From Candidatus Latescibacterota bacterium (GTDB lineage: Bacteria; Latescibacterota; UBA2968; GCA-2709665), in the NCBI GenBank assembly GCA_965248435.1, contig OZ252100.1:2560001-2624000 (forward strand): 64,000 nucleotides of DNA, in the 5' to 3' direction. Shown here one piece after another: positions 9,806-34,895 of the stretch. Below the pieces are notes generated by a model that did not search any database, had not been told where the DNA came from, and saw only the letters and a list, made by a program, of their open reading frames with translations. Position numbers and translations under genes: made by a program. Position 1 is the first letter of the stretch. Every line of letters begins with the position of its first letter.

Positions 9806-9836
9806 GAGGGCTTACACGGACAACGTGTAAGCCCTC
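9806..9836. repeat. 13-bp-arm palindrome of the att-associated family
   Basis: GAGGGCTTACACG-gacaa-CGTGTAAGCCCTC followed by a weak tRNA-Pro 3'-like stretch; probably also terminates the convergent genes. Confidence 0.7.
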
Positions 9837-9859
9837 GATCTTGTTTGATCGGCGATGCG

Positions 9860-11383
9860 TCATTTGTATTCGATAACGATCTCTACGTTTTCCAGGTCCA
9901 GTTCTTCCGTCACCTCTTCATTCTTCTTCTTGAGGATCACCTCAACCTCGTTCTCCCCCGTCCGCACCTCGGGGCCCTCCGTCACGTCATACTCGATCCA
10001 TTTGGCGCTTCTCCATCCGCTTGTCGAGTGCCCTCTCGCGTAGCCCCCAGCAGCGTGGGCGATGTGTCCCCAAAAATCGAATTCAGTTTGACCCTGTGAC
10101 AGACTTTCGCCATTCAGCTTCACCTCCAGCTCGTCAGGAGGTGAAACGTTATTGATCCTCAATCGAAGCGTGATCCCCGCCAGGCTCCCGTCCTTCCGAG
10201 CGGCGGCGATGTCGTCGTCCACCAGGCTGAGGATCGTTGCACCCTGTGACAGCTTCAACGGGCAGGGAAGCTGCTTGGGATAAGTGAACTGCGGCAGTTC
10301 TCTGCCCGACCACTCCATACGGCGCGTCACTTGGTATTTCTTGTCTCTGCGCGCCATCATCTCCGGATCGGCCATCTCCTTCAGATGCGGCATCTCGATG
10401 CCTTCCAGATAGTAATAATTGCCCGCGTTGAAGATATGAAGGCCGTCCACGCCGGCCTTCCAATAGTGAGTGGCCACGGCTCGCCACATGTCGACCTCCA
10501 GGAGCGACGGGGAGCGGGGCTCGAAGCCAGCGAACACGAGCGTTTCCGTTCCTTCCGCTGCCTGGACGCACTCCTCGATCGGCATCTCGAACTCGGCGTA
10601 TCGAATGCCCGAAAAGACCGCGATATCCACCCGTCCTTCGCGGATCCAATTCAGGATGTCGATACCGATGCCGTGACAGACCTCTGCGACGGAGGGCACG
10701 CGGACCTCCAGCACAATCGGATGGCCCCGGCGTTCTCCCGCCTCACGGACCAGGTCCTGAATTTCACCGATCCACGCCATCATCAGATCCCGGTTCGCTT
10801 CCACCTCCGCCGCCTTGAACAGCGTGGGCATGCGGTTGAAATCCAGCTCCAGACCGTCCACATCCCAGCGATCCAGCGTCTCGCGAATGATCTCCTTCCG
10901 GTACTCCCGGACCTCAGCGTGGGCGAAGTTCAGGGCGCCCTTCCACCTCGCATCGATCGGGCAGTCTTCGCCGATGTGGAACTCCGGGTGGTCTACCCAG
11001 AACTTCGGATGCCGGTTGCGTGAGCAGTGGTGCACATCGTTCACGCGAATGCCCGCGAAGAAAGCCATCCCCGCTTTACGTGTCGCCGCGACCGTCTCGG
11101 CCGTCGAGTCCACGCCCTGCGCCTCGAAGTTCTCCTTGTGCTTCTTGTGCCGCCACCACGAGAGGTCGGTGTAAGGCGGCTGAGCGCCCTCCCCCACCTC
11201 GTCCTTACTCTCGTTCATGTGATAGACCATGGCGTTCACGTGGGTATTAGCACACCAGCCGACGGACACCTCTAGGAACTGCTCCATGGTCGCGGGAACC
11301 TCGAGGGTCACGAACGGAAACGCCTCATCCACGTGAAACATGAAGTGATGGTGGTCTCTCCCTCCCATGTTAATCTTGTTCAT
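9860..11383 (-). CDS. Uncharacterised glycoside hydrolase-like (GHL10-type TIM barrel) protein
   Basis: RVNDVH, FWVDHPE, LNFAHAEVRE, DVDGLELDFNR, GVDGLHIFN; GAGGAGG RBS. Confidence 0.65.
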   Translation of the reverse strand: MNKINMGGRDHHHFMFHVDEAFPFVTLEVPATMEQFLEVSVGWCANTHVNAMVYHMNESKDEVGEGAQPPYTDLSWWRHKKHKENFEAQGVDSTAETVAATRKAGMAFFAGIRVNDVHHCSRNRHPKFWVDHPEFHIGEDCPIDARWKGALNFAHAEVREYRKEIIRETLDRWDVDGLELDFNRMPTLFKAAEVEANRDLMMAWIGEIQDLVREAGERRGHPIVLEVRVPSVAEVCHGIGIDILNWIREGRVDIAVFSGIRYAEFEMPIEECVQAAEGTETLVFAGFEPRSPSLLEVDMWRAVATHYWKAGVDGLHIFNAGNYYYLEGIEMPHLKEMADPEMMARRDKKYQVTRRMEWSGRELPQFTYPKQLPCPLKLSQGATILSLVDDDIAAARKDGSLAGITLRLRINNVSPPDELEVKLNGESLSQGQTEFDFWGHIAHAAGGYARGHSTSGWRSAKWIEYDVTEGPEVRTGENEVEVILKKKNEEVTEELDLENVEIVIEYK

Positions 11384-12080
11384 TGCCCTGACCTCCTCTC
11401 GTGGTCTGAATATGGGCCTTTTGTTGTCCGGAAAGAACGTGAAGGATCAAGCTGGTGTGTCCCGGAAGATCGGTCATTTGGACGAAAACGGTGAATCCAT
11501 TCTGGGTGAGTTCGTATGCCTCGTCCAGATCCGAGAAAGTCCTCGACAGTGCTTGCCCGAGAAGGGGAAAATCTGTTGAGCAGCAGATAAGAATGTGGAT
11601 CTCTCTGCTCGGATTCGGGTGGGAAAAAGCCTTCAGTCCATCTCTCGAGTGGATGACTGTTTCGGGATCCTCGCCGTGAAACTCCTCATAATAGATCCGT
11701 TCCGCGTACAGATGGAAATGCACCTGCCGTACATCCTGATAGGGTCCGCCGTTCACACCCAGCGAATACTCGCGCCAGCACCTATCGCGGACCATCTGCT
11801 CGGCAACCGCCAGTGTATCCGAAAAGTAGTGAGTCCTATCGTCGGTGAGCAGTTCGGCGAAATTCGAAATCGCTTTTTTGGGAACGATCAGGATATGTTC
11901 TTCGAAGACCGGGCAAGGATGAGAAAAAACGACAACGCGATCGTTTTCAGCGAGTCGGCGAATTGGAAGTAATCCACAGGCGTGCTCAAACGCCAGTCCG
12001 ATCAATCTTCCAAGGAGGGCTTGTCTGGATGTCCATCTCGCGCATCGGAAAAGAAATCTACCAACCATCAAACAAACCAA
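11370..12080 (-). CDS. HIT-domain protein
   Basis: HILIVPKK and NGGPYQDVRQVHFHL (degenerate histidine triad). Confidence 0.65.
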   Translation of the reverse strand: MVCLMVGRFLFRCARWTSRQALLGRLIGLAFEHACGLLPIRRLAENDRVVVFSHPCPVFEEHILIVPKKAISNFAELLTDDRTHYFSDTLAVAEQMVRDRCWREYSLGVNGGPYQDVRQVHFHLYAERIYYEEFHGEDPETVIHSRDGLKAFSHPNPSREIHILICCSTDFPLLGQALSRTFSDLDEAYELTQNGFTVFVQMTDLPGHTSLILHVLSGQQKAHIQTTRGGQGNEQD

Positions 12081-12179
12081 CGGGGCAGTGACAAATGGAT
12101 CGTTAGAGGATGTATCACGGGGCTAGAGCGATGCTGTCATGCCTGCGCAAGCAGGCATCCAGGCACTTGAGCAGCTGAA

Positions 12180-12689: not shown

Positions 12690-12727
12690 GGGTCTGTCCT
12701 TCGTACGAGTAACAACAGTAAGCTAAT

Positions 12728-12907
12728 ATGAGACTTGTAGCGGAACAACCAAAAGTCTGGCGGGCCCTCAGCACACGGTTGCCTGGGCGGTTTCGAGAGG
12801 ACCCCGCAGACCGGATGATCGTCGCCACTGCTATGGCCGGCGACATTCCGCTTGTCACGAAAGACCAGCACATCCGGCGCTACCGCTACGTTCAGACGAT
12901 ATGGTGA
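12728..12907 (+). pseudogene. C-terminal remnant of PIN-domain (VapC-type) toxin
   Basis: Manual translation MRLVAEQPKVWRALSTRLPGRFREDPADRMIVATAMAGDIPLVTKDQHIRRYRYVQTIW*; DPADRMIVATA..LVTKD is the VapC C-terminal signature. Confidence 0.8.
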
Positions 12908-12933: not shown

Positions 12934-12959
12934 GGGTTACTGAAATCTCTCAGTAACCC
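12934..12959. repeat. Palindrome of the att-associated family
   Basis: GGGTTACTGA-aatctc-TCAGTAACCC. Confidence 0.7.
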
Positions 12960-13006
12960 CTCTCCGTGCGATCCCGTCTGTGAACCCCTATTCCCACTCT
13001 CTATTG

Positions 13007-15091
13007 CTATGCGCGTCCCACTTCCACCAGGGCATCGTGAAAGTCTCCTCCACCGCCCATATCACTCAACCCATCTGGCGTCAGCGCGTTAGCCGATGAC
13101 CCTCCGGGACTGAGCGACGCCCACCAGCCCGACGGCATCGAGACCACGCCGGGCCTGATCCGACTCGCCACTCTCGCCTTGATCTGAACTTTACCCCGAT
13201 CGTTGTATACGCTCACCTCATCCCCATCACGGATCCCTCGTGGCGCCGCGTCCTCGGGATGCATATCGAGCAGCGGCTCCTGTTCGGCTCTCAGGTAACG
13301 CGGCAGGTTGGCATACGTAGAATTCAGAAAGTGGAGTGCCGATTTGGCCGTAATCAGCATTAGCGGATACCGGGCCGCCAGCGCTGGACTGCCTGCTGGA
13401 CTCTCCGGCGGCGGGATGTAGGCCGGAAGCGGATCCACTCCCTGCGCGGTCAGACTCTCATTGTAGAACTCGCACTTTTCCGAGGGGGTGTGAAATCCCC
13501 CGCTGGCGAACGGGAGCCACGGTCTGGGCAGTTCCAGTTTAGCCCATCCCTCCTCCACCAGTCGATCGAACGTAATTCCTTCAAGGTAAGGATGATCACT
13601 GTCGAGAGCGGCACGGATCATATCCTCATCCGAATTCCTGAAATACGGCTCGTCGAATCCCATACGGCGGGCAAGCTCTCGGAAGAATTCCGTATTCGGC
13701 TTCGATTCACCCAATGGAGCGATCGCCGGACGATTCAGCGTCAAATAGGTGTGACCCCACGACCAGAGCATGTCCCAGTGTTCGATCTGAGTCGTCGCCG
13801 GAAAAACGTAGTCCGCGTACCGAGCCGTATCTGTCATAAAATGCTCGACGACCACCGTGAAGAGATTCTCCCGGGCAAACCCTTCCAGAACCCGGTTCTG
13901 GTTCGGCGTGATCGCCGCCGGGTTGCTGTTGTAAACGATCAGACTCCGGATCGGGGGATCCAGTTCGGGATCGGTCAACGCCTGGCCCAGCTGCGCCATG
14001 TTCACGATTCGAATCGTCTGATCTTCGAGCTCCGGCATGCGCAGTCGATCCAGATTCAGCGCTTCATAGAAATACGCGGACGTCGCCCGAAACAGTCCCC
14101 CGCCCAGGTCCCGCCAGGCCCCTACCAGGGCCGGCAAACAGGCGATGCTCCGGAAGATCATTGCCCCGTTGCCGTGGTGCTCCATGCCCAGAAGGGGGCG
14201 GATCAGTGAAGGGCGGGTCGTTGCGTAGGCCCTGGCGAGCTCGACCACCTCGTCTGCATCCAGACCGGTCAATTCGTCTGCTCGTTCGGGTGGATACTCG
14301 TCGAGACGCTTTCGAAGTCGATCGAACCCGAGCGTATGCTGGTCTACATACGCCTGATCGTGCAGACCCTCCTTGACAATCACGTGCATCATCCCGAGCG
14401 CCAGTGCGGTATCCGTTCCGGGCAGCGGCCGGACGTGCCAGTCCGCCTCTCTCGCCGTGCGCGTCTCCATCGGGTCGATCACCACGATCCTGGCACCCGC
14501 CTCACGGGCCTGAGTGATGAACGGCCACAGGTGGAGATTCGTCACGATCGTGTTCGTGCCCCAGAGCACGATAAACCGGCTGTGAACGATGTCTTCAGGC
14601 AGCACACCGGTCCCCGATCCCAGGGTCGCTTCAAGCCCCGAGGCACCGGCCCTGCCGCAGATCGCGCGTTCCAGCCGGGTCGCGCCGAGCCGCGCGAAAA
14701 ACCGGCGGTCCATCGAATCGCCCTGGACCATCCCCTGCGTGCCCAGGTAGCTGTAAGGCAGGATGGCCGTCGGCCCATCCTCGTCGATAATCTGCTGCAG
14801 GCGAACGGAAACATCGCGCAGCGCTTCATCCCAACCCACGCGCTCGAACCGGTTCTCTCCCTTGGGTCCAACGCGGCGCATCGGATAGAGCAATCGGTCG
14901 GGACTGTAGGTGCGTTCCAGGTAATGATTGACCTTCGCACAGAGCCCGCCCCGCGTGAACGGATGCGTGGCATCCCCAACCATCTCGATCGCCCGCCCGT
15001 CCTCGACCGTGACTTCCCACGCGCACGTGTCTGGACAATCGTGCGGGCACGCGCCGCGTATGATCTTTGGTGAAGAATCCGGCTGAGTCAT
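13007..15091 (-). CDS. Molybdopterin (bis-MGD) oxidoreductase catalytic subunit
   Basis: CPHDCPDTC..C Fe-S motif, GGLCAKV, TDTARYAD, C-terminal molybdopterin-binding domain; start moved to MTQPD (GGAG RBS). Confidence 0.92.
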   Translation of the reverse strand: MTQPDSSPKIIRGACPHDCPDTCAWEVTVEDGRAIEMVGDATHPFTRGGLCAKVNHYLERTYSPDRLLYPMRRVGPKGENRFERVGWDEALRDVSVRLQQIIDEDGPTAILPYSYLGTQGMVQGDSMDRRFFARLGATRLERAICGRAGASGLEATLGSGTGVLPEDIVHSRFIVLWGTNTIVTNLHLWPFITQAREAGARIVVIDPMETRTAREADWHVRPLPGTDTALALGMMHVIVKEGLHDQAYVDQHTLGFDRLRKRLDEYPPERADELTGLDADEVVELARAYATTRPSLIRPLLGMEHHGNGAMIFRSIACLPALVGAWRDLGGGLFRATSAYFYEALNLDRLRMPELEDQTIRIVNMAQLGQALTDPELDPPIRSLIVYNSNPAAITPNQNRVLEGFARENLFTVVVEHFMTDTARYADYVFPATTQIEHWDMLWSWGHTYLTLNRPAIAPLGESKPNTEFFRELARRMGFDEPYFRNSDEDMIRAALDSDHPYLEGITFDRLVEEGWAKLELPRPWLPFASGGFHTPSEKCEFYNESLTAQGVDPLPAYIPPPESPAGSPALAARYPLMLITAKSALHFLNSTYANLPRYLRAEQEPLLDMHPEDAAPRGIRDGDEVSVYNDRGKVQIKARVASRIRPGVVSMPSGWWASLSPGGSSANALTPDGLSDMGGGGDFHDALVEVGRA

Positions 15092-15632
15092 GAAATCTCC
15101 TGGAGCTGAGTCCTGCCGCAGACTTGCCCGAATCCCGGTCAATATACAAAGCTTCGCGGGCTTCGTCTACACGGACGGCCCGAAGTCCAATAGCTCAAAG
15201 GCATCGGGGCCGCGGTGTGCGAGTTCCTTGCAGCCAGCGCCTTTCTCCTCCCAATGGGTTGGGGCCCTCTGTGGGACCGGGTGAAGTGCGGGGGCGGTGG
15301 CGCGGGCGAATGGAAATTCGCGGGGCGGGGGCGGGTCCCACAGCGGGCATCAGGCGGGGGGAGGAGTCCAACCTTTTGCTGAGCCCGCCCCTTCCACCGA
15401 GGGTGAGGTGCCGCGGCCCAAGCCCCCGCGGCGTCTGAGCGGCGCCCTTCTTTTGTCCTCGGGCGCGGCACGCCGCGCCCCTGCTGCGAAATCTTGGAGT
15501 GTAGGGGCACAGCCGCGCTGAGCCCAAGGGTGGCGGTTGCGGTAGGCCTTTTCTTGTGGCGAGACAAGAAAAGGGGGCTGCGAGATTCCCACGCAACCCC
15601 CGATGGCTCACCTGACGATCAGATCTTGTCGA

Positions 15633-16334
15633 TCAGTCTCTTGAGCTCACAATTCTGAGCACGAACCAGAACATCAACGCCACCGAAGCGAACAGTTCCA
15701 GCGCGGCGCCCACGTGACAGTCCTCGGGAAAGTCGTAAATGATCCGCTGCGTATCATACAGGATGGCCGCGCCCGCGAGCCCCACCATCGCGACAGAGAA
15801 CCACGTGCCTAGAGACAACCCGAACATCACGCCGCCCACGATGGCCAGGAGCGCGAGGATCCCGCCCCAGCGGAGCAGTCCGCCCAGAAACGAGAAGTCC
15901 TTCTTGGTCCAGAACGCGATGCCGGTCAGCGCGCCGAATCCCAGCAGGGTGATCGTGCCCGCGCTCTGAATGGCCCCCGGGGCGTAATGACTCGCCATGA
16001 AGAGCATCGGCACGAAAATAATCGCTTGGGCCAACACGAATCCGGCAAGCGCCAGGTACTGGCTGGCCACCGAAGTCGCGGAATAGGCCACCTTCCTTGC
16101 CATCCAGCTCACCAGGATGAAGCCACCCAGAACGAACAGCCAGTTCACGCCCAGCATGCTCTCCGCCAGGGTCTGAGCGATTCCGCTGTTGAACAGAAAC
16201 CACTCGATCAGAATGAAAAGGAGAATGGAGCCAAACAGATGGTTGTAGGTGCGAACGAGAAACCCCTCTCGAGACACATCCCGCGTGGTCTCTCGGGCGA
16301 TCGTCTGTGAGCCGGCTGCATAACGCTCATCCAT
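15633..16334 (-). CDS. Bax inhibitor-1/YccA family membrane protein
   Basis: Seven hydrophobic segments, KKDFSFLG, ILYDTQRI, AALELF. Confidence 0.9.
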   Translation of the reverse strand: MDERYAAGSQTIARETTRDVSREGFLVRTYNHLFGSILLFILIEWFLFNSGIAQTLAESMLGVNWLFVLGGFILVSWMARKVAYSATSVASQYLALAGFVLAQAIIFVPMLFMASHYAPGAIQSAGTITLLGFGALTGIAFWTKKDFSFLGGLLRWGGILALLAIVGGVMFGLSLGTWFSVAMVGLAGAAILYDTQRIIYDFPEDCHVGAALELFASVALMFWFVLRIVSSRD

Positions 16335-16491
16335 AAAAGACCTCCTTCAGAAGCCAGTAACGAACTGTCTGGAATACAGTTAACATAAGGGATAGTGGCA
16401 ATTCAATCAAGGGAAGTTGGAAGATCTGTCGCGCACCTTCGTGTCATTTCGTGATCCAGCTTTACGATCCGACGATTCACGATCCACGGCC

Positions 16492-17664
16492 TCACTCCAC
16501 CGTCGCCACCGTCGGTGCACGAGTCAGCCGCTCCGGCCGATCAACCGTGATGATATAATCGTCCTCGAGATGCATGCCTCCCAAACCTGGAACGGTAAAC
16601 ATAACCTCAATCGCGACGGTCATCCCCTCAGCGAACTGCAGATCCAGCGTCCCCTGAGGGAGGGTCCCCCGCTTCGCGATCGGTGCGAGAAAGACCGGAT
16701 AAAAGGAAGGGAACAGACCGATCATATGTCCGGCCCCAACGCAGAACGGCTCATACCGGGAGCCTTTTACCACGCCTGCAGCGGCATCCATCACCTCTCG
16801 TACGGTGACACCGTTCCCAAGGGTTGAGACAGCGGCCGCCAGCGTTTCCTCCGCCAGCTTGAAGACATCCAGCTGCGCCTGACTTGCCTTTCCGTAAACG
16901 AACGACCTTGCGATGTCCGTAGCATAGCCCCGGTAAACCGGCGTCAAATCCATCCACAGGAGATCCCCGCTGCGGATTTCCCTGTCTGCGGGTGAATTCG
17001 GCCATTGCTCCGCCTCCGGACCGCTTGAAATGACGCTCGGATGCCAGACGCAGTCCGCGCCCTGCATTCTCATCTCGCTCTCGGCAAGGATCGACAACTC
17101 CCGCTCTGTGATGCCTTCGCAAACCGCGTCCATCACCTTTTCCACACCGCTGTCCACGATCTCTCCGGCCTTCCTCATGAGGTCCAGTTCCCGGTTGTCC
17201 AGGACCTTCCTCGACATCTCGAGGTCCAGGGAGACATCTTCAACCTGACAGCCCAACCCCGCAAGCGCACTCACGACAGAGGAGGACAGGTGACCGCAAT
17301 CGACGCCGACCTTGACCGCATCGAGCCCCGTCAGCGATCTGATCCCTTCGACCGCAAAATAAGCAAACTCCTCCGGCGCGTGCAGAAACGGCCCCCTGCG
17401 AGACCGCATCGGCTCGACCCTGTCGATCCAGGTCTTCGCCTTCGCTCGCTCGGCATCCTCAGCGCTCACCCAGACGCCGCATTCATCCTCGGTGAAGACG
17501 AGGAAGCACCAGGGAAAGAGTCCCAGAAGATCCGAAACATAGGTGAAATTGTAATTGTGCCGGACTGGAAGGAACGCCCCGAAATTCGCGAGAAGAATCG
17601 CATCCACATTTCTGGAGGAGAGAACGCTCCGGAAGTTTGCAAGATGTTTCTCAAAGTAGTTCAT
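16492..17664 (-). CDS. M24 family (Xaa-Pro) aminopeptidase-like protein
   Basis: GYATDIARSF, GHMIGL, IEV, GMHLEDD; creatinase-like N-domain. Confidence 0.85.
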   Translation of the reverse strand: MNYFEKHLANFRSVLSSRNVDAILLANFGAFLPVRHNYNFTYVSDLLGLFPWCFLVFTEDECGVWVSAEDAERAKAKTWIDRVEPMRSRRGPFLHAPEEFAYFAVEGIRSLTGLDAVKVGVDCGHLSSSVVSALAGLGCQVEDVSLDLEMSRKVLDNRELDLMRKAGEIVDSGVEKVMDAVCEGITERELSILAESEMRMQGADCVWHPSVISSGPEAEQWPNSPADREIRSGDLLWMDLTPVYRGYATDIARSFVYGKASQAQLDVFKLAEETLAAAVSTLGNGVTVREVMDAAAGVVKGSRYEPFCVGAGHMIGLFPSFYPVFLAPIAKRGTLPQGTLDLQFAEGMTVAIEVMFTVPGLGGMHLEDDYIITVDRPERLTRAPTVATVE

Positions 17665-17711
17665 CTCAAGTTCCTTTCTCTTCAGTCTGTTTACGTCAAG
17701 CGCCGATGGCC

Positions 17712-18575: not shown

Positions 18576-18912
18576 ACAACCCTCCATGCATCACCAGAAT
18601 CCCCTCCCGGGAGGGGTGCCCCGCTTCGCATCTCTGCGGCGTGTCCTAAGCAGGGCGTACGAATTAAGCCGGGGCGGGGTGGGTCAAGAAGCCCCTCAGG
18701 ACCTGACCGCTTCATCGCCCGAAATATCCAATATTCAGGGAAAGGCGGCTACAGCTCGCGCTGATCCATCCCTTGATTATTGGATATTATTGATTATTGC
18801 CTTCTCTCTGGTGAACAAGTCCCCTCCAAGGAAGGGACTGGCCAACAACTGAGCCTGTGCGCCCTCCCCGACCATGCACACGTTCATGGGCTTTCCTCCT
18901 AAGTCTCTCCAT

Positions 18913-24679: not shown

Positions 24680-24712
24680 CAACGGGTTACAGCAATTGCC
24701 TGTAACCCGTTG
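24680..24712. repeat. 13-bp-arm palindrome adjacent to the att duplication
   Basis: CAACGGGTTACAG-caattgc-CTGTAACCCGTTG. Confidence 0.8.
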
Positions 24713-24717
24713 TCATT

Positions 24718-24760
24718 TTTGGTCGGGGCGGCGGGATTTGAACCCACGACCCCCTGCTCC
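24718..24760 (-). repeat. att direct repeat: 43-bp exact copy of the tRNA-Pro 3' half
   Basis: Identical to 34817-34859. Confidence 0.95.
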
Positions 24761-24771
24761 TAAATAGGAGG

Positions 24772-26263: not shown

Positions 26264-26267
26264 GTTC

Positions 26268-27149
26268 TCACCCTCCTCCACAGCCGCCACAGCCGCCTCC
26301 ACACGATCCTTCACTCCCTGTGGACTTGTGAAACATTCTTTGGTAGTACTCGTAGGGAGTTCCAGCAAGCACTCCGACGCCGAAGAGCCCTAGAGTCAGC
26401 AACAGGGTCGGACCCGCTGCAGTTTTGGTGGCCGCAAGAGCCCTCTCTTTCAGCCCTTCGAACGCCAACTGGAGCTTTTGCAAATAAGCCCGTCCTCTAC
26501 TGCTGAGACGGGGCGTCTCGCAGATACTGAACAGAATTCCAAGCGAAAAAAGACCCAAAAGGACGAGGCCTAATTTGGACTGACCCTTCATTAAAGCGAA
26601 TAACAGCTTGTATCCCCCCAGGCCCACGATGACGATCGCGCCTTTAAGCCTTATCTGCTGAGCCGCTTCCTGCACTTCGGCAGGCATCAGCAGTTGCTCC
26701 TCTTCAAGTCTCTGGTCGAAGGACGCGTAGTGATACTTGATTTCGGATGGCAGCTCTGATTGGAAAATCTCCTCCGAAGCAAGACGGTTGTGGAACCAAT
26801 CGAAAACTTCGCGCTCCATTTGAGACAGATGGCGAGTGTGAGGATGGTCTGGGACCTGTTCTATTCGCTCATTCGACTCCTCCGTCACACGTAGGTAGCC
26901 TCGTTGAAGCAGGTTGAAGATAGCGACTCGTGCCACCTCACTCTCTTCGCCACGCAAATAGGCAGTTTCGTAGGGATTCGGGGTCCTAGTGGGAACTTTC
27001 AGCGGAGGCAGCGACGCCGTTGGGTCAGACTGGCGTAACCTCCACCAACAGGCCGCCAGCGTGAAAACGATGACGATCGCGTAAAAGAAGAAAAAGTGAG
27101 GCCCATACATATCGGCAATAGGGTTTTGCATAAGCCAATCCACTATCAT
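26268..27149 (-). CDS. TIGR04222-domain membrane protein with Gly/Cys C-terminal tail
   Basis: NPIADMYGPHFFFFY, PYETAYLRG, three TM segments, ends GSEGSCGGGCGGCGG. Confidence 0.85.
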   Translation of the reverse strand: MIVDWLMQNPIADMYGPHFFFFYAIVIVFTLAACWWRLRQSDPTASLPPLKVPTRTPNPYETAYLRGEESEVARVAIFNLLQRGYLRVTEESNERIEQVPDHPHTRHLSQMEREVFDWFHNRLASEEIFQSELPSEIKYHYASFDQRLEEEQLLMPAEVQEAAQQIRLKGAIVIVGLGGYKLLFALMKGQSKLGLVLLGLFSLGILFSICETPRLSSRGRAYLQKLQLAFEGLKERALAATKTAAGPTLLLTLGLFGVGVLAGTPYEYYQRMFHKSTGSEGSCGGGCGGCGGG

Positions 27150-27262
27150 CACCTCCTAGAGCCGGTCAAAAATGCTGGCCGCTTGTCCAACTGTTGACAT
27201 TAAAGCATTGTAGTGAGCTCTGCAGCGTCAGGCGTGTGATCTCCTGACTTCAGGGTCTTGGA

Positions 27263-27781
27263 TTAACCCAGGGGCCATGGTAGTAGTATGATTCCTGCGG
27301 GCCAATCGAGTGAGAGAATGACCGAGATAAGAAGGATGAAGTTAAACCCCATCAGACCCGCGGCGGCGGCTAGTATCCAATCGGTTTTGACGACATAGCG
27401 GTAAAAAAGGGCAATGAAGATCGCTATGCTCAGGGGATAACCAACGAGCCATATTCCTAAGTAGAGGAGAGAACCATAAATACCCACCTCTCTCATGCGT
27501 ATGTTCCTTGTGTGTCCATCCTCCTCCGTCTTTCCTACATCGGAAACCTTTAATTCCGAATCTCCTCTGTCATCTACATTGGCCTCTTGTTTCACCCTAC
27601 TGAAAGACACTACCTCCAACCCAAGATGAACGCACGCTAGAAGGAGAAACGTAAGGCTTACAAACAAAGGGAAGATCTTTGCCAGATATGAATAGGAAAC
27701 GGCCTCCCCTGCCCCGTATCCAAACCCCAGCGCAACCAGCCCTGCAAAAAGGACCTTCATATTGAATATTTTAGTCTGCAA
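27263..27781 (-). CDS. tctB: Tripartite tricarboxylate transporter small membrane subunit
   Basis: Four TM segments, FP motif, position after tctA. Confidence 0.75.
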   Translation of the reverse strand: MQTKIFNMKVLFAGLVALGFGYGAGEAVSYSYLAKIFPLFVSLTFLLLACVHLGLEVVSFSRVKQEANVDDRGDSELKVSDVGKTEEDGHTRNIRMREVGIYGSLLYLGIWLVGYPLSIAIFIALFYRYVVKTDWILAAAAGLMGFNFILLISVILSLDWPAGIILLPWPLG

Positions 27782-29255
27782 AGTCGTCTCCAGGACTCAG
27801 AGGTTTTGCTCGATAACGAATGCTCATGACCAGGGATACAAGAATAATGAGGAACAGAACTAATACACCGGGACGAGCAAACCAGCTCAAACCGTACCGT
27901 TGTACTGAGATGAAGAGATACGTTTCCAGGTTGCCCGCCAGCACGAAGCCGATGAGAGCAGCGGGCCGAGGCCATGCCAGATGTTTCATCACCCACCCCA
28001 GCGTTCCAATCAGTAAGAGCGCTACCAAATCGCCCCAGCTTCTCGTCGCCTGATATGAGACCAATGTTACGACGAGTACCATAAAAGGCGCTACATAGTG
28101 GAAAGGGATGATCGTAATCTGGGAGATGGGTCGGGACAAGAGAATGCAAAGCCCTGCTCCAACGACATTGGCCAGCGCTAGACTCCAAATTGCTGTGTAG
28201 AGCAGGTCCGCTTTTTCGGTCACCATGGAAGGCCCTGGTTGAATTCCAAGAATAAGAAGACCCCCCAAAAAAACGGCCATAGAGCCAGAGCCGGGGATAC
28301 CGAAAAGGAGTGTCGGAATGAGCCCCCCTCCTTCCTTCGCATTGTTGGCGCTCTCAGGCGCCAAAACGCCTCGAATATCCCCTCTTCCGAAATTCTTCGG
28401 GGGCCTGGCTGTTGTTATGATATGCCCGTAGGCGAGCCAATCTACCACCGAACCACCGAGACCTGGCAGGAACCCCACAACGACACCGATCAGGCTGCAC
28501 CGCAAGACGATGAATTTGTAGCGAATGACATCTTTTACGCCGTCCAACCAGCCTTTTTCAATCTTGCCGGCTTGAGCAATGGGCCGCCCTTGCCTGATGA
28601 GGTCTATCAGCTCGGGAACTGCGAACAGCCCGAGCCCTACAACGACAAGAGAGATGCCGTCCAGCAGATACGCTGTGCCAAAGGTGTAGCGGTATTCGGG
28701 GACCGCCGGGGCCGATCCCATCGATCCGATCATGAGTCCGATGCCAGCAGCCAGCAGGCCTTTGAGGATGTGTTTGCCGGAGAGAATTCCGACCATCGAT
28801 ATCCCGAGGAGCGCCAGCATGAAAAGCTCCGGAGAGCCGAAAGCGAGTATGAGTGGCCGGGCGATGGGTACTATGACGGAGAGCGCCAACGCCCCAATAA
28901 GTCCACCGATAAGTGACGCCGAAAAGGCGGCGGAAAGGGCCCGCGCCGCCTGACCTTTTTGGGCCAAAGGATACCCGTCCATGACGGTGGCCTGAGATCC
29001 TGCTGAGCCCGGAATGCCCATCAACACCGAGGGGAACGTGTCCGAAGTGGGAATGACCGCGATCATCCCGATTAGAAGGGCAAACGCGCTATGGGGAGCC
29101 ATGCCGTATATCACAGGTAGGAGCATGGTCATACCTACGATGCCACCAAGCCCTGGAATGATCCCGACCAAGAGTCCTACCAGAACGCCTGTGATCAACA
29201 TCAATAAGTGCGTCATGCTAAAAACAGTGTGTAAGGACTCCAGGAATGCATCCAC
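27771..29255 (-). CDS. tctA: Tripartite tricarboxylate transporter large permease
   Basis: GIIPGLG, DGYPLA, APESANNAKEGG, GIPGS. Confidence 0.93.
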   Translation of the reverse strand: MDAFLESLHTVFSMTHLLMLITGVLVGLLVGIIPGLGGIVGMTMLLPVIYGMAPHSAFALLIGMIAVIPTSDTFPSVLMGIPGSAGSQATVMDGYPLAQKGQAARALSAAFSASLIGGLIGALALSVIVPIARPLILAFGSPELFMLALLGISMVGILSGKHILKGLLAAGIGLMIGSMGSAPAVPEYRYTFGTAYLLDGISLVVVGLGLFAVPELIDLIRQGRPIAQAGKIEKGWLDGVKDVIRYKFIVLRCSLIGVVVGFLPGLGGSVVDWLAYGHIITTARPPKNFGRGDIRGVLAPESANNAKEGGGLIPTLLFGIPGSGSMAVFLGGLLILGIQPGPSMVTEKADLLYTAIWSLALANVVGAGLCILLSRPISQITIIPFHYVAPFMVLVVTLVSYQATRSWGDLVALLLIGTLGWVMKHLAWPRPAALIGFVLAGNLETYLFISVQRYGLSWFARPGVLVLFLIILVSLVMSIRYRAKPLSPGDDFAD

Positions 29256-29267
29256 GACTCTTCCTCC

Positions 29268-30359
29268 CTATTCCGCAGTAATCCCATACTTGCTCGTGAT
29301 CCAATCGCGCATCCAGGATTTGCTCTCATCTGGAACGTCTATGACTTGCTTGAACGATTCATGTGCCAACTTCCCGACGAGTTGCGGATAGCCTCCCAGG
29401 CTCTTCTCAACCTCTCCTTGAAACTGGGAATCCGCGATGATTTTGGCGGCCGCTGCCCGATAATCCTGTACGATTTCATCTGGCGTATTTTCAGGCAGCC
29501 ACATGGCCTTTTGCAGGCCGAAGCCCGCAATTAAAAACGCCTTCCAGGCTTGCCACTCCGGCCCGGAAGGCTTTTCCCCGTGCACCATCTCGTACACTTC
29601 GGGAAAACACGGCAGGTCCGGCTCGATTGGATCTCTGACAATAGTCCCGTCCCGATCCAACACACCCCATGTCATTAAAGGTACGGCGAGTTTCTGTTTT
29701 ACTAGAGGACGGACGTTTTTGATGTAAGCGGTAGTAGTCTGATAGTCGATGTTGGCTTCCCCCTGCTCGAACGCGACTCGTCCGGCGCCTCTGCCCTTGT
29801 AGCCGAAGATTGCGCTGACTTCAAGTTTGAGCATATGGAAAGCCAATAATGGAACAATATCGAGGGATGTTGGCCCTTGAGAGGCATAAGAGAGTTTCAG
29901 GTTGAATCCCTTGAGGTCCCGGGCGGACGTAACCCCCATGCCGGGTTTGGTATAGACCACCCCACCGGAAGGGGAAGCGAATACGATTTGATACTTTGCG
30001 AAGTCGTACTGGACTTTGCGGTTTTCCAGTAGATAGGGGAACGTTGTAGACCCTGAAGAGCCAAAGACCGTCAAGCCATCAGCACTGACCCCCGTGTGAA
30101 AGTAGTTCCCTCCATTGATACTCCCGCCGCCCGGCATATTCTTTACAACAACCACAGGATGGCCTGGAAGATACTTCTGAAAATAGGGTGCGTAGATTCT
30201 TGCCCATATATCGGAGCCCCCACCCACTTTAAAAGGGATGATCCACTTAATGGTGCTGCGAGAACCTTTCGTCTGGTAAGCGACATATACGTTCAGCAAG
30301 GTGAGAAGAATAACGCTTACAAGGAAAATTATCCTTTTCTTCTGAAGCCGTGTGGTCAT
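29268..30359 (-). CDS. tctC: Tripartite tricarboxylate transporter substrate-binding protein
   Basis: IIPFKVGGGSD..AR, NMPGGG, ADGLT, GYKG..AFEQGE. Confidence 0.88.
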   Translation of the reverse strand: MTTRLQKKRIIFLVSVILLTLLNVYVAYQTKGSRSTIKWIIPFKVGGGSDIWARIYAPYFQKYLPGHPVVVVKNMPGGGSINGGNYFHTGVSADGLTVFGSSGSTTFPYLLENRKVQYDFAKYQIVFASPSGGVVYTKPGMGVTSARDLKGFNLKLSYASQGPTSLDIVPLLAFHMLKLEVSAIFGYKGRGAGRVAFEQGEANIDYQTTTAYIKNVRPLVKQKLAVPLMTWGVLDRDGTIVRDPIEPDLPCFPEVYEMVHGEKPSGPEWQAWKAFLIAGFGLQKAMWLPENTPDEIVQDYRAAAAKIIADSQFQGEVEKSLGGYPQLVGKLAHESFKQVIDVPDESKSWMRDWITSKYGITAE

Positions 30360-30563
30360 AATTCCTTCACCGTTTCAAATCCCAATTTCTCGGTCTTTCA
30401 ACTCCGTGACGCGCCCTCTTTTCAGAGATCCATTCGATCGTCTTGCCAGAGAAATCAACATCACCGGGTAGCAGACCTTGAACTTCCTATCGCTTATCGA
30501 TTCCGTCGTTCTCCCGGCGCAGGCACCGACGCTGAACGTCCCGGGCCGGTGGGTTCGTCAAGT

Positions 30564-32603
30564 CTACGGAGGGACCATCCGATCAGCCTCGCGCACCTGG
30601 ACAATCACACAAAAGCGCGTCCCAGGGACCTTTGCGAAGCCGGCCAGCCAGCGGCCGGCGTGCGCGGAATTCTCTTGTCCAACCGGATCGCGGTAGTCTT
30701 CAAACGCGCCGCCCGAAAGCATATGGGCCTGATCCTTCGGGAAGGGAACGGGACAAGCACGAGGCTCGAATGTCGGGTGGAGCACGATCAGATACTCCGC
30801 GGGTTGTTTGGGCTCGCCTCTTGCGGGATTGGGATCCCAGAGACCCACCACGGCGACCTTATACCTCGAATCCTTGATCTGCTCCAAGCCCATGGTTCGG
30901 CCGGTGGTGATTGACGCATGGATCACCCCAATGATTTCCCCCTCTTCGGACTGCACAACGCGGTCAATACCAAACTTGTAGATCTTCTGCGCCTTGGAAA
31001 AATAGAGCCTCGAGACGTACACGGCCTGGACCCCGGGTTCACTCGCCCGGGCAAGCGCCCCCTGTATGTAATCGCGAAAGAGGAAGTTCTTCCCGAGCAA
31101 AGGCTCCTCCCGATCTTCTTGGTCCATCGACTGTTCAAGCATCTTCCCCTTGGCATCATAGATCGCGGAGGTCTCGAAGGGGCGGTAACCTTCTAGGCCG
31201 AGGCGGCTCTTCGCCAGATTCTTTAGGAAGGCATGAAGGCCGTCCACGTCGTCCGACCGCAGCATCACTCTCAACTTGTCGCTCCCCGCCGCCTCGTTCA
31301 CGACCGCCTTCAGCTTTTCGAGCCGGTTGTGCAGGATCGAGGCTACCAATCCGGCGACATATTCGCAGCTCTCCAGCGTTGCCCTTTTTTGGGCTGAGAC
31401 CGTGATCTCAGCGTTACGCTTGTCCAACCAGGTCTTTCCGCCAACACCAGAAAGCGACAGGGCCACAACCGTGAAGACGGCCGCAGCGGGATTGCGCCGG
31501 CTCCACCGCCACACGTGTTTCCAGACAGGCCAGCGTGGAACCGCTCTTGGTTTCTTTAGATCCAGCCATCGTTGCAGGTCGCGGGCTACAGCCTCCGCGG
31601 ATCCATAGCGTTCCTCTGGGTTCTTCTCCAAGCATTTGAGACAGGTCCTTTCCAGATCGGGGTCGCAGCGACCGTGCAGTGCCTTCGGGAACTCCGGGAT
31701 GCGGTTCCTGACCAGGGTCTGGGGGTCCGCCCACGACTCGTCGGGACTTTCGACTCGATAGGGCGCCTTTCCGGTAAGGATGGCAAAGAGAACGGCGCCC
31801 AGCCCGTGCACGTCGCTCGTCGTGGTCAGGTCTAAATTCGGCTCTGTCTGTTCGGGAGACATGAAACCAATCGTGCCTTCGACGTTTCCCGTAGCCGGGA
31901 TTTTCTCATCCTTCTCAAAAGGCTTGGCCAGGCCAAAGTCTGTAACATATGGCCGCTGTTCGTCGTCCAGCAGGATGTTATCTGGTTTCAGGTCACCATG
32001 CTGGAGTCGGCGCGTGTGCGCGTGATGCACGGCCAGTGCGAGCTTCTTCACCAAGTAAGCCGCGGCGCGATGATCATGAGTAAATTCCGATAAGCGATCG
32101 TTCAGGCTGCAACCTTCGATGAAATCCATGGTGAAGTACGGCCTGCCGTCTGCGTGGATCCCAACTTCGTGTACCGGGACGATGTAGCTGTGCTTCAGAT
32201 TTGCCTGATGCTGCGCTTCTGTGCGAAAGCGCTTAACATCTTCCCGGGTCAGAGATGCGCCGGGCCGTGTGATCTTCAAGGCCACCCATCGCTTGAGGTT
32301 GGCATCAAAAGCTTTGTACACGACCCCCATTCCGCCGTGACCCACGTATTGGATCTTCGTGTATCGCGGTTCCTCGCCAAGCACACCGAAGTCTTCAAGA
32401 ACGAGTGGAATATCGTCGACGATCCACGGAGGATCTTTCAAGAACCCCTCAGACTCCGCCTTCGCTGCGTGCGGCAAGAGAGCTTCCACCTCGCCACGCA
32501 CGTGTGGATCCATTTCGTCGAGGTAGGTTCGGCGCTCGGAGGGTTCGAGCGCCTGTGCCTCCGCGAGGGCATCGGAGACTTCCTCCCAACGTTCAGCGCT
32601 CAT
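30564..32603 (-). CDS. Membrane Ser/Thr protein kinase with Cache-like C-terminal sensor
   Basis: GHGGMGVVY, VALK, HGDLKPDN, DFGLA, GTIGFMSPEQ; TM after RRNP; NFLFRDYIQGA, VYVSRLY. Confidence 0.9.
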   Translation of the reverse strand: MSAERWEEVSDALAEAQALEPSERRTYLDEMDPHVRGEVEALLPHAAKAESEGFLKDPPWIVDDIPLVLEDFGVLGEEPRYTKIQYVGHGGMGVVYKAFDANLKRWVALKITRPGASLTREDVKRFRTEAQHQANLKHSYIVPVHEVGIHADGRPYFTMDFIEGCSLNDRLSEFTHDHRAAAYLVKKLALAVHHAHTRRLQHGDLKPDNILLDDEQRPYVTDFGLAKPFEKDEKIPATGNVEGTIGFMSPEQTEPNLDLTTTSDVHGLGAVLFAILTGKAPYRVESPDESWADPQTLVRNRIPEFPKALHGRCDPDLERTCLKCLEKNPEERYGSAEAVARDLQRWLDLKKPRAVPRWPVWKHVWRWSRRNPAAAVFTVVALSLSGVGGKTWLDKRNAEITVSAQKRATLESCEYVAGLVASILHNRLEKLKAVVNEAAGSDKLRVMLRSDDVDGLHAFLKNLAKSRLGLEGYRPFETSAIYDAKGKMLEQSMDQEDREEPLLGKNFLFRDYIQGALARASEPGVQAVYVSRLYFSKAQKIYKFGIDRVVQSEEGEIIGVIHASITTGRTMGLEQIKDSRYKVAVVGLWDPNPARGEPKQPAEYLIVLHPTFEPRACPVPFPKDQAHMLSGGAFEDYRDPVGQENSAHAGRWLAGFAKVPGTRFCVIVQVREADRMVPP

Positions 32604-33226
32604 GATTCTTCTCCTCGCAAGCGTTGATGAAGCCAGGCCCGAGCGGCGCGCCAGTCTTTTTCCACTGTGGACACGGAAACCCCCAGGTAACCGGCGATCT
32701 CTCTCTCCTTGAGACCGCCAAAAAAGCGGAGCGAGACGACCTTGCTCTGTCGCTGGCTTTTCTGTGTGAGTTCGTCAAGGGCTGCGTGCAAGTCTAGATA
32801 CTTCACTTTCTGCGTTGCTTCAAGCGCTTCGACCGCCCGGTCCCATATATCCTGTTCGGATCCTTGTCGTTTCGCTAGCCGTCGAGCATGCTCAATAAGG
32901 ATGCGGCGCATCGCCAACGCCATGGCGCCGAAAAAATAAGCGCGATTTGGGGCTTTAAAGTTGCCCTTGCTGAAAATTCTGATCCACGCCTCATGCACTA
33001 TCGACGACGCCTGGCACATGGCATTCGTTCGCTCCCTGAAGAGCTTTCCGCGGGCCATCTCCTTAAGCTCCTCATAGACCTGTTCGATGAGTTGATGCTT
33101 TGCAACCGGATCACCTGCCGCCGCATTCTGAATAAGTCGCGTCAGCTCTCCGGCGGACTGGAGGTCCATGGAATTCACCTCCTGCGACGAGTCTCTTTCC
33201 GCATCATCAGGGGGTCTTTTTTCCAT
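32600..33226 (-). CDS. ECF-type sigma factor (TIGR02999-like, kinase-associated)
   Basis: VYEELKEMA, IVHEAW, YFFGAMALAMRRILIEHAR, LRFFGGL, TVEKDWRAARAWL. Confidence 0.92.
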   Translation of the reverse strand: MEKRPPDDAERDSSQEVNSMDLQSAGELTRLIQNAAAGDPVAKHQLIEQVYEELKEMARGKLFRERTNAMCQASSIVHEAWIRIFSKGNFKAPNRAYFFGAMALAMRRILIEHARRLAKRQGSEQDIWDRAVEALEATQKVKYLDLHAALDELTQKSQRQSKVVSLRFFGGLKEREIAGYLGVSVSTVEKDWRAARAWLHQRLRGEES

Positions 33227-33514
33227 CTATGCGACTCCTCCTGCCACACTCTATACATACATGCGTCGAGAATCACCGAAATCCGTAACGGATTTTCCAA
33301 CCTTCCACATTTTGTGCAACTCGATGTAGTCGCAAAAGTTAGGGACTGTATGCCGCACACAGGGGAATCCACGCCCGGCCCGCGGATCACGTTGGAGGGC
33401 CGCAAGCTACCTTTGCCTATGGTTTGGGCCGGGGCCGGCGTGAGGGGAAGATCAAGGCCCGTAGAAACCACAGGATCTTCCAACCGCGGTGCTGAAGGCG
33501 AGTCCGGGACTCCT

Positions 33515-34591
33515 TCAGGCGCGTTGTTGATTGCCGTGAAGCCGGATCGTCTCGGAGGTCCAGCGCGGGTCCCGGATTCGCTGCTTCGTCTTCCGGGCGA
33601 CTTCCTCCGTGAATTCCGACGTCGAGCAGCTACCCCGTAGATCCGGTGTGCAAACGCCTTCCCGCAGAAGATCTAGGCAGGAGTTCTTGATGGCGCTCGC
33701 CGGTCTGACCTCGCCGAGGTGGTACAACAGCAGGGCGAAGGCCAGAAAGATTGCAGTCGGGTTGGCTTTTCCTTGGCCCGAGATGTCGGGCGCCGTCCCG
33801 TGGGCAGCGTCGTAGAGTCCTACTCGAATGTTACCCTTTGCGTCGAATCCATAGTTTCCGCTCGCGCCGATGCCAAGGGAGCCGATCAGCCCGCACGCCA
33901 TATCCGAGAGAAAGTCTCCGTATTCGTTAAGCACCAGGACAACCTTGAAATCCTGAGGACGCAGCACGATCTTTGCCAGGAGCGCGTCGAATAGCTCGAT
34001 ATGGTGGGAGACGTCGTCGTAGCGTTGCGCTACCGTCCGAACGATCGATTCAAAGAGACCGTCCGTGACCTTCTGGATCGTGTGCTTCGAGGAAGACGTG
34101 ACGCTCTTCTTTGTCTTCCTGGCCAAGTCGAAAGCGAACGACGCCGCCTGGAGGCAGGGTTCTCGTTCGATGATCCGGAGGGAAACCGCGGCCTCGTGCC
34201 CGATCATCTGTCCGGGATCGTCGTATGTGCCGCCGGTCGCGATGCGCACGATATCAAGGTCGAGTTCCTCTTTGAAATTCGACGGGATCCCTGGGATGGT
34301 CTGGACGGGACGGTGGATAACGTGGAGTCGTAGCCGTTTGCGAAGTACTTGATTCGGGCTTTCGCGGACCGTGGCGGTCGGATGTTTGAGCGCAACGCTC
34401 GTCTTTTCGATGGCCTCTACTATTTCATCATAGAGAGCCATTCCCTCCGCGTCGCGCCGTTCGACGCTGAGGTCGAATGGCCGCCAGTCGATCCCGAACG
34501 GAAGTGCTTGTTCGGCGAGGTGGTGGACCGCCTCCGAGAGCTCCGACCCGATCCCATCGCCGAGAAGTTCAACGACCGAATAGGATTTCAT
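33515..34591 (-). CDS. Isocitrate/isopropylmalate dehydrogenase family protein
   Basis: GDGIGSE, NEYGDFLSD, AAHGTAPDISGQGKANPTA. Confidence 0.92.
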   Translation of the reverse strand: MKSYSVVELLGDGIGSELSEAVHHLAEQALPFGIDWRPFDLSVERRDAEGMALYDEIVEAIEKTSVALKHPTATVRESPNQVLRKRLRLHVIHRPVQTIPGIPSNFKEELDLDIVRIATGGTYDDPGQMIGHEAAVSLRIIEREPCLQAASFAFDLARKTKKSVTSSSKHTIQKVTDGLFESIVRTVAQRYDDVSHHIELFDALLAKIVLRPQDFKVVLVLNEYGDFLSDMACGLIGSLGIGASGNYGFDAKGNIRVGLYDAAHGTAPDISGQGKANPTAIFLAFALLLYHLGEVRPASAIKNSCLDLLREGVCTPDLRGSCSTSEFTEEVARKTKQRIRDPRWTSETIRLHGNQQRA

Positions 34592-34779
34592 ATGTACACC
34601 TCCTCTTCTATCATTAGTATATAATCAGCCTATTCAAGAATTTTGAAACAATTCATAAAGGTAGAATGGGGAAGCTACAATATAATCCTGCAAATTCGCC
34701 TCGCCAAACTCTGATGATGTTCTAATTGCCGACGGCGATTATGGTCACAGGTGGGTCACAGGCTTTAAGGTAAGAGAAG

Positions 34780-34809
34780 AGGGCTTGCACCCTCATCAGT
34801 GCAAGCCCT
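34780..34809. terminator. Palindrome downstream of tRNA-Pro (att-family, probable terminator)
   Basis: AGGGCTTGCAC-N8-GTGCAAGCCCT; GGTCACAGG direct repeat at 34743-34762 may be integrase arm sites. Confidence 0.7.
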
Positions 34810-34818
34810 TGTTTTATT

Positions 34819-34895
34819 TGGTCGGGGCGGCGGGATTTGAACCCACGACCCCCTGCTCCCAAAGCAGGTGCTCTACCGGGCTGAGCCACGCCCCG
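34819..34895 (-). tRNA. tRNA-Pro(TGG)
   Basis: CGGGGCG acceptor stem, CCTGC-tt-TGG-ga-GCAGG anticodon arm, GGTTCAAATCC, CCA end. Confidence 0.97.

Follow-up and report, generated by a model that had tools for sequence, protein, structure and literature searches.

Tandem stacking of islands at tRNA genes is a familiar route of bacterial genome growth, and integration into tRNA genes falls into sublocation classes, crossover in the anticodon loop among them. Classical tRNA-integrating prophages and islands restore the tRNA gene and leave behind a direct repeat of its 3' end that begins in the anticodon loop and measures about 43-46 nt. Cis-mobilizable elements (CIMEs), known from a streptococcus, are defined by retained attachment (att) sites, attL and attR, and by loss of the genes for integration and transfer. 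They share with integrative elements that are conjugative (ICEs) or mobilizable (IMEs) a three-step scheme of integration, decay and accretion. For the tycheposons of Prochlorococcus, the sections of the description compared here report that elements are separated only by a partial tRNA, that newcomers push older elements deeper into the island, that partial tRNAs are scattered through the islands with fragmented integrases, and that most island material is not recognizable as elements (10.1101/2020.12.28.424599). Here we analyze a stretch of the 5.67-Mb genome of a Candidatus Latescibacterota bacterium (G000), in which about 22 kb of strain-specific genes lie beside the gene for tRNA-Pro(tgg). 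The whole stretch of 64,000 nucleotides (G000:C1:2560001-2624000) is called the window, and positions are given within it unless a genome is named. We conclude that these genes probably represent old genomic islands stacked one on another, without integrases and marked by remnants of tRNA ends. An initial annotation of the window had described them as an integron-like gene-capture platform delimited by six related palindromes.

Displaced copies of the tRNA-Pro(tgg) 3' end

We compared the window with a sister species (G001), with a family set of 22 genomes (G000 and 21 others) and with a phylum sample of 168 genomes. The initial annotation placed the last palindrome beside an intact tRNA-Pro gene, a second beside an exact copy of the tRNA 3' end and a third beside a gapped, decayed copy, and all three placements were confirmed (Table 1). 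The repeated core comprises the last 43 nt of tRNA-Pro(tgg), including 2 nt after the CCA. The identity block begins in the anticodon loop, and beyond the exact copy a weaker similarity reaches into the anticodon stem-loop in the alignment. We then aligned tRNA-Pro(tgg) with the 75 nt that lie on the right-hand side of every hairpin, using 5000 random genome windows as the null. The sequence at hairpin 24684 scored 48 and the decayed copy scored 22-24, compared to a null 99.9th percentile of 14 and a null maximum of 18. Both copies are in register relative to their hairpins. Rfam at gathering thresholds identified four tRNAs in the window and nothing else.

The other three hairpins gave a different result. 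In a second test against the 3' ends of all 48 tRNAs (null mean 11.3, 95th percentile 14), hairpins 9806, 12934 and 15573 scored 10-12, within the null range. The 17/23-nt tRNA match originally read beside hairpin 9806 is therefore not upheld: the stretch scores 12 against tRNA-Pro (p ~0.01) only if a T-rich spacer is counted, and part of it is the stop-codon region of the neighboring gene, which is conserved in G001. A candidate remnant next to hairpin 12934 was also rejected (best local match 12/15, score 9, p = 0.16). By alignment, three of the six hairpin sites are tRNA junctions and three are not. The proposed fall in similarity with distance from the tRNA is seen in two copies only, the exact and the decayed one.

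Table 1. Features of the tRNA-Pro(tgg) array, ordered from the tRNA gene outward.
Feature	Position	Strand	Evidence and remarks
Intact tRNA-Pro(tgg), attachment target	34819..34895	-	ARAGORN; Rfam tRNA 67.3 bits; blastn-short
Terminator hairpin after intact tRNA, 11-bp stem AGGGCTTGCAC	34780..34809	-	Fold -22.9 kcal/mol, z = -4.4
Direct repeat CTGTGACC-CAC-CTGTGACC, putative arm-type integrase sites on element side of left junction	34743..34761	-	Same module in G004, G073, G077 and G098
Segment A, youngest islet (supported), 10 kb, no integrase	24761..34818	-	Pfam; bounded by exact 43-nt repeat
Exact 43-nt copy of tRNA-Pro 3' end, right junction of segment A	24718..24760	-	blastn-short 43/43
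Terminator hairpin after exact copy, 14-bp stem ACAACGGGTTACAG	24679..24713	-	Fold -25.2 kcal/mol; terminator scan
TGCTAAC module, TGCTAGC-N4-GTGCTAAC	24653..24670	-	About 50 nt of homology to post-tRNA sequences
Truncated IS3-family transposase, rve_3 C-terminal part only	24451..24615	-	Pfam rve_3 E = 9.3e-7
Segment B, older islet (supported), ~3.8 kb	~20874..24678	-	Pfam
Decayed, gapped copy of tRNA-Pro 3' part	20816..20873	-	45/61 columns identical, 56 nt of tRNA covered
Terminator hairpin after decayed copy, imperfect stem GGCTTACGCG/CGCAAGCC	20775..20800	-	Fold -19.5 kcal/mol
Segment C, 7.8 kb, strain-specific, without verified att copy at far end	12960..20774	-	Pfam
One-arm-mismatch hairpin, terminator of Bax1-I gene, ends an interspersed repeat	15573..15601	-	No tRNA remnant
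GGGTTAC hairpin between convergent genes, 27 nt past end of G001 synteny	12934..12959	.	Pattern, fold
PIN (VapC-like) C-terminal fragment	12722..12907 (PIN piece 12722-12904)	+	Pfam PIN E = 2.5e-5
Bidirectional terminator, 13-bp stem, between convergent genes	9806..9836	.	Census, terminator scan, fold; tRNA test negative

The 43-nt copy is in direct orientation relative to the tRNA, and segment A thus keeps both attL and attR. The region from ~12.9 to 34.8 kb was missing from 30 relatives apart from matches to a PhyH gene and an interspersed repeat. Both of these exceptions fall in 12930-24700, where the PhyH gene matched at 67%; segment A (24650-34820) had no DNA match at E<=1e-20 in the same relatives. 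The linkage between tRNA-Pro(tgg) and a dipeptidase gene is conserved across the family. Pfam analysis of all nine segment A open reading frames (ORFs) returned cargo only. The PF00589 profile gave 16 hits in the G000 genome and none in the window, and tblastn with an intact integrase from another genome (G081) found no match in the window even at E<=10. The segments thus lack integrases, as the initial annotation reported.

Repeated site-specific insertion at the tRNA-Pro 3' end is supported for at least the segments 24761-34818 and ~20874-24678, judging by these repeats. This much of the proposed insertion series stands for the two tRNA-proximal segments; the palindromes, of which three of six adjoin tRNA copies, fail as a shared recombination site. 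In the scheme that we favor, elements with tyrosine integrases and a crossover in the anticodon loop would have inserted successively at the tRNA 3' end, each insertion restoring the tRNA and pushing the earlier junction farther off. A displaced junction would then consist of a tRNA 3' copy plus whatever had been downstream of it, and the exact and decayed copies would be the surviving examples. The hairpins beside these copies would be a tRNA-type terminator travelling with the attachment region. Loss of the integrase genes would have left att-bounded, integrase-less islets, that is, CIMEs.

The comparisons also support the newest segment being nearest the tRNA. When 32 window proteins were compared with the 20 kb downstream of tRNA-Pro in 10 relatives, one likely ortholog was found, a methyltransferase fragment in G001. 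The 3' part of this segment B gene (22471-22685) lies 1.2 kb downstream of the G001 tRNA-Pro in the same orientation. From this fragment we infer that the linkage of segment B to the tRNA is older than the species split and that segment A arrived later. This order agrees with the exact versus decayed state of the repeats and with insertion at the tRNA-proximal site.

We therefore asked how the locus compares with described systems. On balance, it is likely that decayed islands of the tRNA-targeting kind, equivalent to CIMEs, lie here in tandem downstream of tRNA-Pro(tgg). Segment A retains attL and attR and has lost integration and transfer genes, as the CIME definition asks, and the array fits the steps of integration, decay and accretion in the same order. 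The array differs from ICE/IME-type islands in that neither genes for conjugation, mobilization or a relaxase nor a helper element were seen in it, and its host is an environmental bacterium rather than a streptococcus. With classical tRNA-integrating islands the locus shares the length and anticodon-loop start of the tRNA 3' repeat, the restored tRNA and putative arm-site-like repeats beside the core, and G000 carries an intact example of such an island at tRNA-Thr(tgt); no gene for an integrase, an excisionase or any other element function is present in the window. No tycheposon-type replication or integration module was found in it, judging by the absence of an integrase, and the conserved hairpin-plus-repeat flank seen here is not met in the compared sections of the tycheposon description.

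Hairpins as tRNA-gene terminators

The initial annotation listed six palindromes of the consensus GGSTTRC-N11/12-GYAASCC. Five match it (at 9809, 12934, 20775, 24684 and 34782), and the sixth, at 15573, is a hairpin with one arm mismatch. Folded as minus-strand RNA, all six reach -19.5 to -28.1 kcal/mol and are followed by U-rich tails, and each lies directly past the 3' end of a minus-strand gene (stop codon) or tRNA. A consensus terminator scan called two of them, 9806 and 24679. Judged by fold and position, the six palindromes are intrinsic terminators and not a new kind of recombination site.

The motif is rare in the genome, with 14 matches at N11-12 and 19 with loops of 7-16, and five of these 19 fall within 25 kb (Poisson p = 3e-8). 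We also took a census of GC-rich perfect hairpins (arm >=8 bp, loop 3-16) that made no use of the original pattern. It found 1971 hairpins, of which 16 carry GGSTTRC: four of 13 at 9.7-34.9 kb, versus 12 of 1958 elsewhere (Fisher p = 2e-6). The clustering is real, since the rare motif and the unbiased census both show an excess in the region.

Hairpins of this type are associated with tRNA genes throughout the family. Eleven of the 19 motif hairpins in the genome adjoin a tRNA 3' end or tRNA fragment, and the same type (AAAACAAGGGGTTACGAG...CTCGTAACCCCTTGT and variants) follows tRNA-Pro(tgg) in seven of 10 relatives' loci. In G000, 10 sites match the strict pattern GGGTTAC-N7-16-GTAACCC; the 21 other family genomes have 0-4 each, and the sister species G001 has none. 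The reversed control pattern gave zero in all family genomes but one. We surveyed 21 loci, one per family genome with a match, G000 included (L169-L189). In 18 of these, the strict hairpin sits downstream of an intact tRNA at a distance of 10-23 nt, the tRNAs being Leu(gag), Leu(cag), Pro(tgg), Ala(ggc) and Arg(ccg), and it follows a tRNA fragment in at least two more. It is therefore tRNA-linked in at least 20 of the 21 loci, and at eight of the 10 G000 sites. Thus, the palindrome is not a generic terminator unlinked to tRNA, and the connection drawn in the initial annotation survives to that extent. In these comparisons, the palindrome is the family's type of tRNA-gene terminator, and where it stands without an intact tRNA it signals a tRNA flank that has been displaced. 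A terminator family GGGTTACG...CGTAACCC, with AAACAA before it, is common to unrelated tRNA genes family-wide.

These results bear on the integron reading, which we reject because there is no recombinase in the window and because the hairpins are tRNA terminators across the family. The comparison breaks down at each defining feature examined, and only the outline is alike: ordered, promoter-poor cargo units with imperfect palindromes between them and the newest unit next to the anchor. The window contains neither IntI nor any other tyrosine recombinase, and its units carry multiple genes, span 4-10 kb and are bounded by tRNA 3' copies and tRNA-type terminators, not attC sites (no attC model was run). 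The array is an ordinary, already familiar kind of structure, and the role given to the hairpins was mistaken.

The left limit of the array is less clear. Hairpins 9806 and 15573 are ordinary gene terminators by their context; the former borders a 1.6-kb indel seen in comparison with G001. Synteny with G001 extends from position 5 to 12907 on the left and resumes from 35409 onward, the latter part being inverted in G001. The VapC-like fragment is 84% identical to G001, with homology ending exactly at its stop codon (12907), and the nearby hairpin 12934 is absent from G001. Hairpin 12934 may be a displaced original tRNA terminator marking the far end of the array. The initial annotation had suggested asking whether presence/absence breakpoints coincide with the palindromes. 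One, this G001 breakpoint, falls 27 nt from hairpin 12934; it is away from any verified tRNA copy. Broken genes were likewise said to flank the junctions, and the VapC (PIN) and IS3 (rve_3) pieces are confirmed. The rve_3 match covers profile positions 39-65 of 67, and the 5' part of the IS3 gene is missing. The FGGY_N piece (20573-20812) is weakly supported, with an E value of 0.0024 that falls below the Pfam cut-off.

We considered whether segment A is the single real island, the rest being ordinary variable chromosome in which unrelated terminators were chosen post hoc for their likeness. In favor of this view, tRNA remnants are lacking at three of the six hairpins, every hairpin is positioned like a terminator, the consensus was itself fitted to these data, and indel edges naturally fall in intergenic DNA, where terminators reside. 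Against this account, the decayed copy at 20816-20873 scores far above the null, the excess of motif hairpins persists in the unbiased census, and the motif is tRNA-linked nearly everywhere else. Moreover, the methyltransferase fragment in G001 ties segment B to the tRNA flank. A single island is thus improbable.

Repeat modules, integrases and islet mobility

We next examined the short repeats that follow the hairpins, which we take as putative arm-type integrase sites. The TGCTAAC module at 24.6 kb has ~50 nt of homology to sequences after G000 tRNA-Pro(cgg) and tRNA-Gly(ccc). Its exact form occurs six times in four of the 168 genomes, in every case 60-75 nt past a tRNA (or tRNA fragment) and hairpin. 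In G081, the module at tRNA-Pro(tgg) and the stop codon of an intact tyrosine integrase gene (382 aa) are ~28 nt apart. The nearest non-trivial G000 relative of this integrase is a pseudogene in the module-bearing tRNA-Pro(cgg) island (60% over 55 residues). In the window, the last 27 residues of the IS3 transposase occupy the position where G081 has its integrase. Because the truncated IS3 gene adjoins the module at that position, loss of the integrase by deletion is suggested, and the IS3 fragment looks like a deletion scar. A wider contig scan for the TGCTAAC module returned at least 118 stretches, mostly from unrelated phyla and many from actinomycetes.

In G004, G073, G077 and G098, a tRNA or tRNA fragment and then a hairpin precede the CTGTGACC module. 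The hairpin is of the GGGTTAC type in three of these four genomes, G073 being the exception, and the module adjoins a 380-aa integrase in G004. A 479-aa ORF after the module in G004 was also considered as an integrase candidate and rejected, as it is unrelated to the G000 integrase pseudogene pieces. When the downstream regions of five junctions were compared by tblastx and blastn, nothing was shared beyond the ~50-nt module.

Seven G000 tRNA genes have tRNA 3' fragments within 26 kb downstream: tRNA-Leu(gag) has four, tRNA-Pro(cgg) and tRNA-Val(tac) have two each, and tRNA-Gly(ccc), tRNA-Glu(ttc), tRNA-Thr(tgt) and tRNA-Pro(tgg) have one each, the last in addition to its decayed copy, which that search missed. 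Only tRNA-Thr(tgt) has an intact adjacent integrase (370 aa, with a 46-nt repeat and a 25.7-kb island), and the tRNA-Pro(cgg) island contains an integrase pseudogene. In the family, tRNA-Pro(tgg) fragments occur in at least six of the 22 genomes, and G008 carries an integrase remnant 3.6 kb from tRNA-Pro(tgg). The IS3 scar, the tRNA-Pro(cgg) pseudogene, the G008 remnant and the intact elements of G081 and G004 all point to decay as the probable origin of the integrase-less state.

A second tandem array lies at tRNA-Leu(gag) (G000:C1:5154843-5179055), with four tRNA 3' fragments and a GGGTTACGTC hairpin after each. Its segments span 3.2, 2.2, 10 and 8.5 kb and contain cargo and one IS91-type unit, and the first three fragments share up to ~60 nt of flank beyond the hairpin. 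The tRNA-Pro(tgg) 3' end also has an orphan copy (95%) at G000:C1:784726-784782, far from any tRNA-Pro gene and with its hairpin shortened, and orphan copies of the tRNA-Val(tac) and tRNA-Pro(cgg) ends are also present. A 314-aa tyrosine recombinase gene is present in six near-identical copies (G000:C1:1448697, 2072009, 3850323, 4651755, 4843473 and 5171870), the last of which is paired with an IS91/Y2-type transposase. This set looks like a multi-copy mobile unit.

Several observations weigh against decay of once-complete islands. Segment A has an undecayed 43/43 repeat with no integrase trace, coding sequence comes to within 12 nt of its distal core, and no CTGTGACC site is present at that end. 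That a random deletion took the integrase and one arm and left the core entire would be coincidental. The pattern is seen elsewhere: the tRNA-Leu(gag) segments of G000 include three without an integrase and a fourth with only the IS91-associated one, and in G004, G009 and G018 the islets flanked by copies of tRNA-Pro(tgg) held no integrase. The CTGTGACC pattern gave eight matches in the 168 genomes versus six for its reversed control, so that only its context is informative. To these points we add the left limit, which is uncertain because hairpins 9806 and 12934 carry the motif without a tRNA remnant.

These features raise the possibility that the islets are cargo-only cassettes with functional att ends, which in this genome never carried an integrase and were moved by one encoded elsewhere. 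The tRNA 3' end would then be a gene-capture platform, a picture that matches the behavior of CIMEs. The perfect repeat at both ends of segment A, with cargo up to the core, favors such cassettes, as do the integrase-free islets at tRNA-Pro(tgg) in three relatives and at tRNA-Leu(gag), where the downstream flanks share >100 nt. In addition, G009 and G018 carry a DUF3800 islet and G007 a remnant of it, and each of the three is sister to an islet-free genome in a tree of the adjacent dipeptidase gene. Several G000 tyrosine integrases could act in trans, and movement by an integrase so supplied is possible. The initial annotation had suggested looking for a circular junction and for a tRNA-Pro-targeting integrase elsewhere. 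No excision joint 24760-34819 appears among the joints listed for the contigs of two runs, from which rare forms drop out, and no integrase of matching specificity was identified in G000. The 24.6-kb junction looks like a deletion scar where a relative has an integrase, and integrase-free recombination between direct repeats of 45-80 nt can also give patchy presence. The DUF3800 pattern comes from a single-gene tree, and in genus g3 the tyrosine recombinases of most genomes number only 2-3, two of them conserved Xer-like genes. We therefore regard cargo-only cassettes as rather unlikely, and favor decayed islands that once encoded their own integrases.

A further idea is that the A-rich spacer, the GGGTTAC hairpin and the short direct repeats after a tRNA 3' end together form the conserved attachment-side module of an undescribed tRNA-targeting superfamily of this phylum whose islets move in trans. 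If so, the elements would bring their own terminator, explaining why one hairpin family is found at tRNA genes for Pro, Leu, Val, Arg and Ala, and several tRNA genes per genome would be open gene-capture platforms. A hairpin family shared by different tRNA genes and accompanied by element-type repeats was not met in the portions of the literature compared, for which no dedicated search was made. We consider this superfamily doubtful.

Cargo, rearrangement and significance

Segment A encodes isocitrate/isopropylmalate dehydrogenase-like, ECF sigma factor, Ser/Thr kinase, TctA/TctB, DUF2207_C and MbnB/DUF692-like proteins and a 219-aa protein of no assigned family. A plasmid search with this segment returned only TctA-type transporter genes at 64-68% identity and no plasmid relative. 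At 24772-27152, the genes for the 219-aa protein, an MbnB/TglH/ChrH-family DUF692 enzyme and a DUF2207_C membrane protein form a cluster. One distant genome (G039) in the phylum sample has this cluster conserved, at protein identities of 58-77% and away from tRNA. The cluster is a candidate peptide-modification module. Segment B carries genes for an alpha/beta hydrolase, a methyltransferase and PepSY, pentapeptide and luciferase-like domain proteins, together with a pectate-lyase-like fragment (23089-23424 by Pfam). A 361-nt stretch over this fragment (23093-23453) has a 94% identical copy at G000:C1:4905372-4905732. Segment C contains molybdopterin oxidoreductase, Bax1-I, M24 peptidase and PhyH genes, a gene for a 530-aa protein of no assigned family and the FGGY_N fragment. 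Its interspersed repeat (15201-15572) is GC-rich and apparently non-coding, has ~126-nt units and as a whole ends in ...CTTGTGGCGAGACAAGAAAAG. This repeat gave 88 blastn matches in G000 and >40 in G001 at ~80% identity, and no Pfam or Rfam match. On the other side of the tRNA gene, tandem M19 membrane dipeptidase paralogues occupy 35628-40327 with 65-76% DNA identity between copies, and such paralogues are tandem in relatives too.

Window positions 12907 and 34811 correspond to G001:C1:982348 and 1065619, and the stretch starting at tRNA-Pro is inverted in G001. One end of a large rearrangement therefore lies at the tRNA-Pro island region. The left flank continues in G001 into DNA that is located near 3.32 Mb in G000. 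Among the relatives, none is near enough to reveal an empty site for G000, and a clean pair of empty and filled sites was seen only for another islet, in genus g3.

The sequencing-run evidence consists of contigs, in which rare forms are lost, with one depth figure per contig. In two runs of the organism, contigs break at each of the repeat copies, and segment A forms its own contig (24731-34846) in runs X20 and X22. Its depth relative to the flanks (15.6 vs ~11-14 in X20 and 36.5 vs ~44-50 in X22) is unreadable as excision. Contigs of run X24 (organism B) are 98-99% identical over 19000-19966 and parts of 36062-37769 and are more divergent over 19948-22828. Most of segment A is uncovered in this run, which is not evidence of absence, and there is no joining contig. 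The contig data also contain a joint 21627-36990, with a side of 26 nt, that lies in short repeats. Short sequences at 21594-21885, 36958-37029 and 38229-38291 match dozens of places in G001 and give rise to false joints between 21627 and 36990. Nineteen rows of marine or seawater metagenomes showed small shares (0.08-0.20), which give no evidence of habitat.

The present array leaves the current understanding of island formation unchanged. It provides a worked example, from outside the usual model organisms, of accessory metabolic genes piling up at a tRNA gene and of mobility genes being lost. The shared hairpin-plus-repeat flank at different tRNA genes hints that elements, rather than the host, supplied many of the tRNA terminators, and such element-supplied terminators, once known, would help to annotate islands without a remaining integrase. 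A GGGTTAC hairpin with no intact tRNA beside it can serve, within this family, as a practical marker of an old attachment junction.

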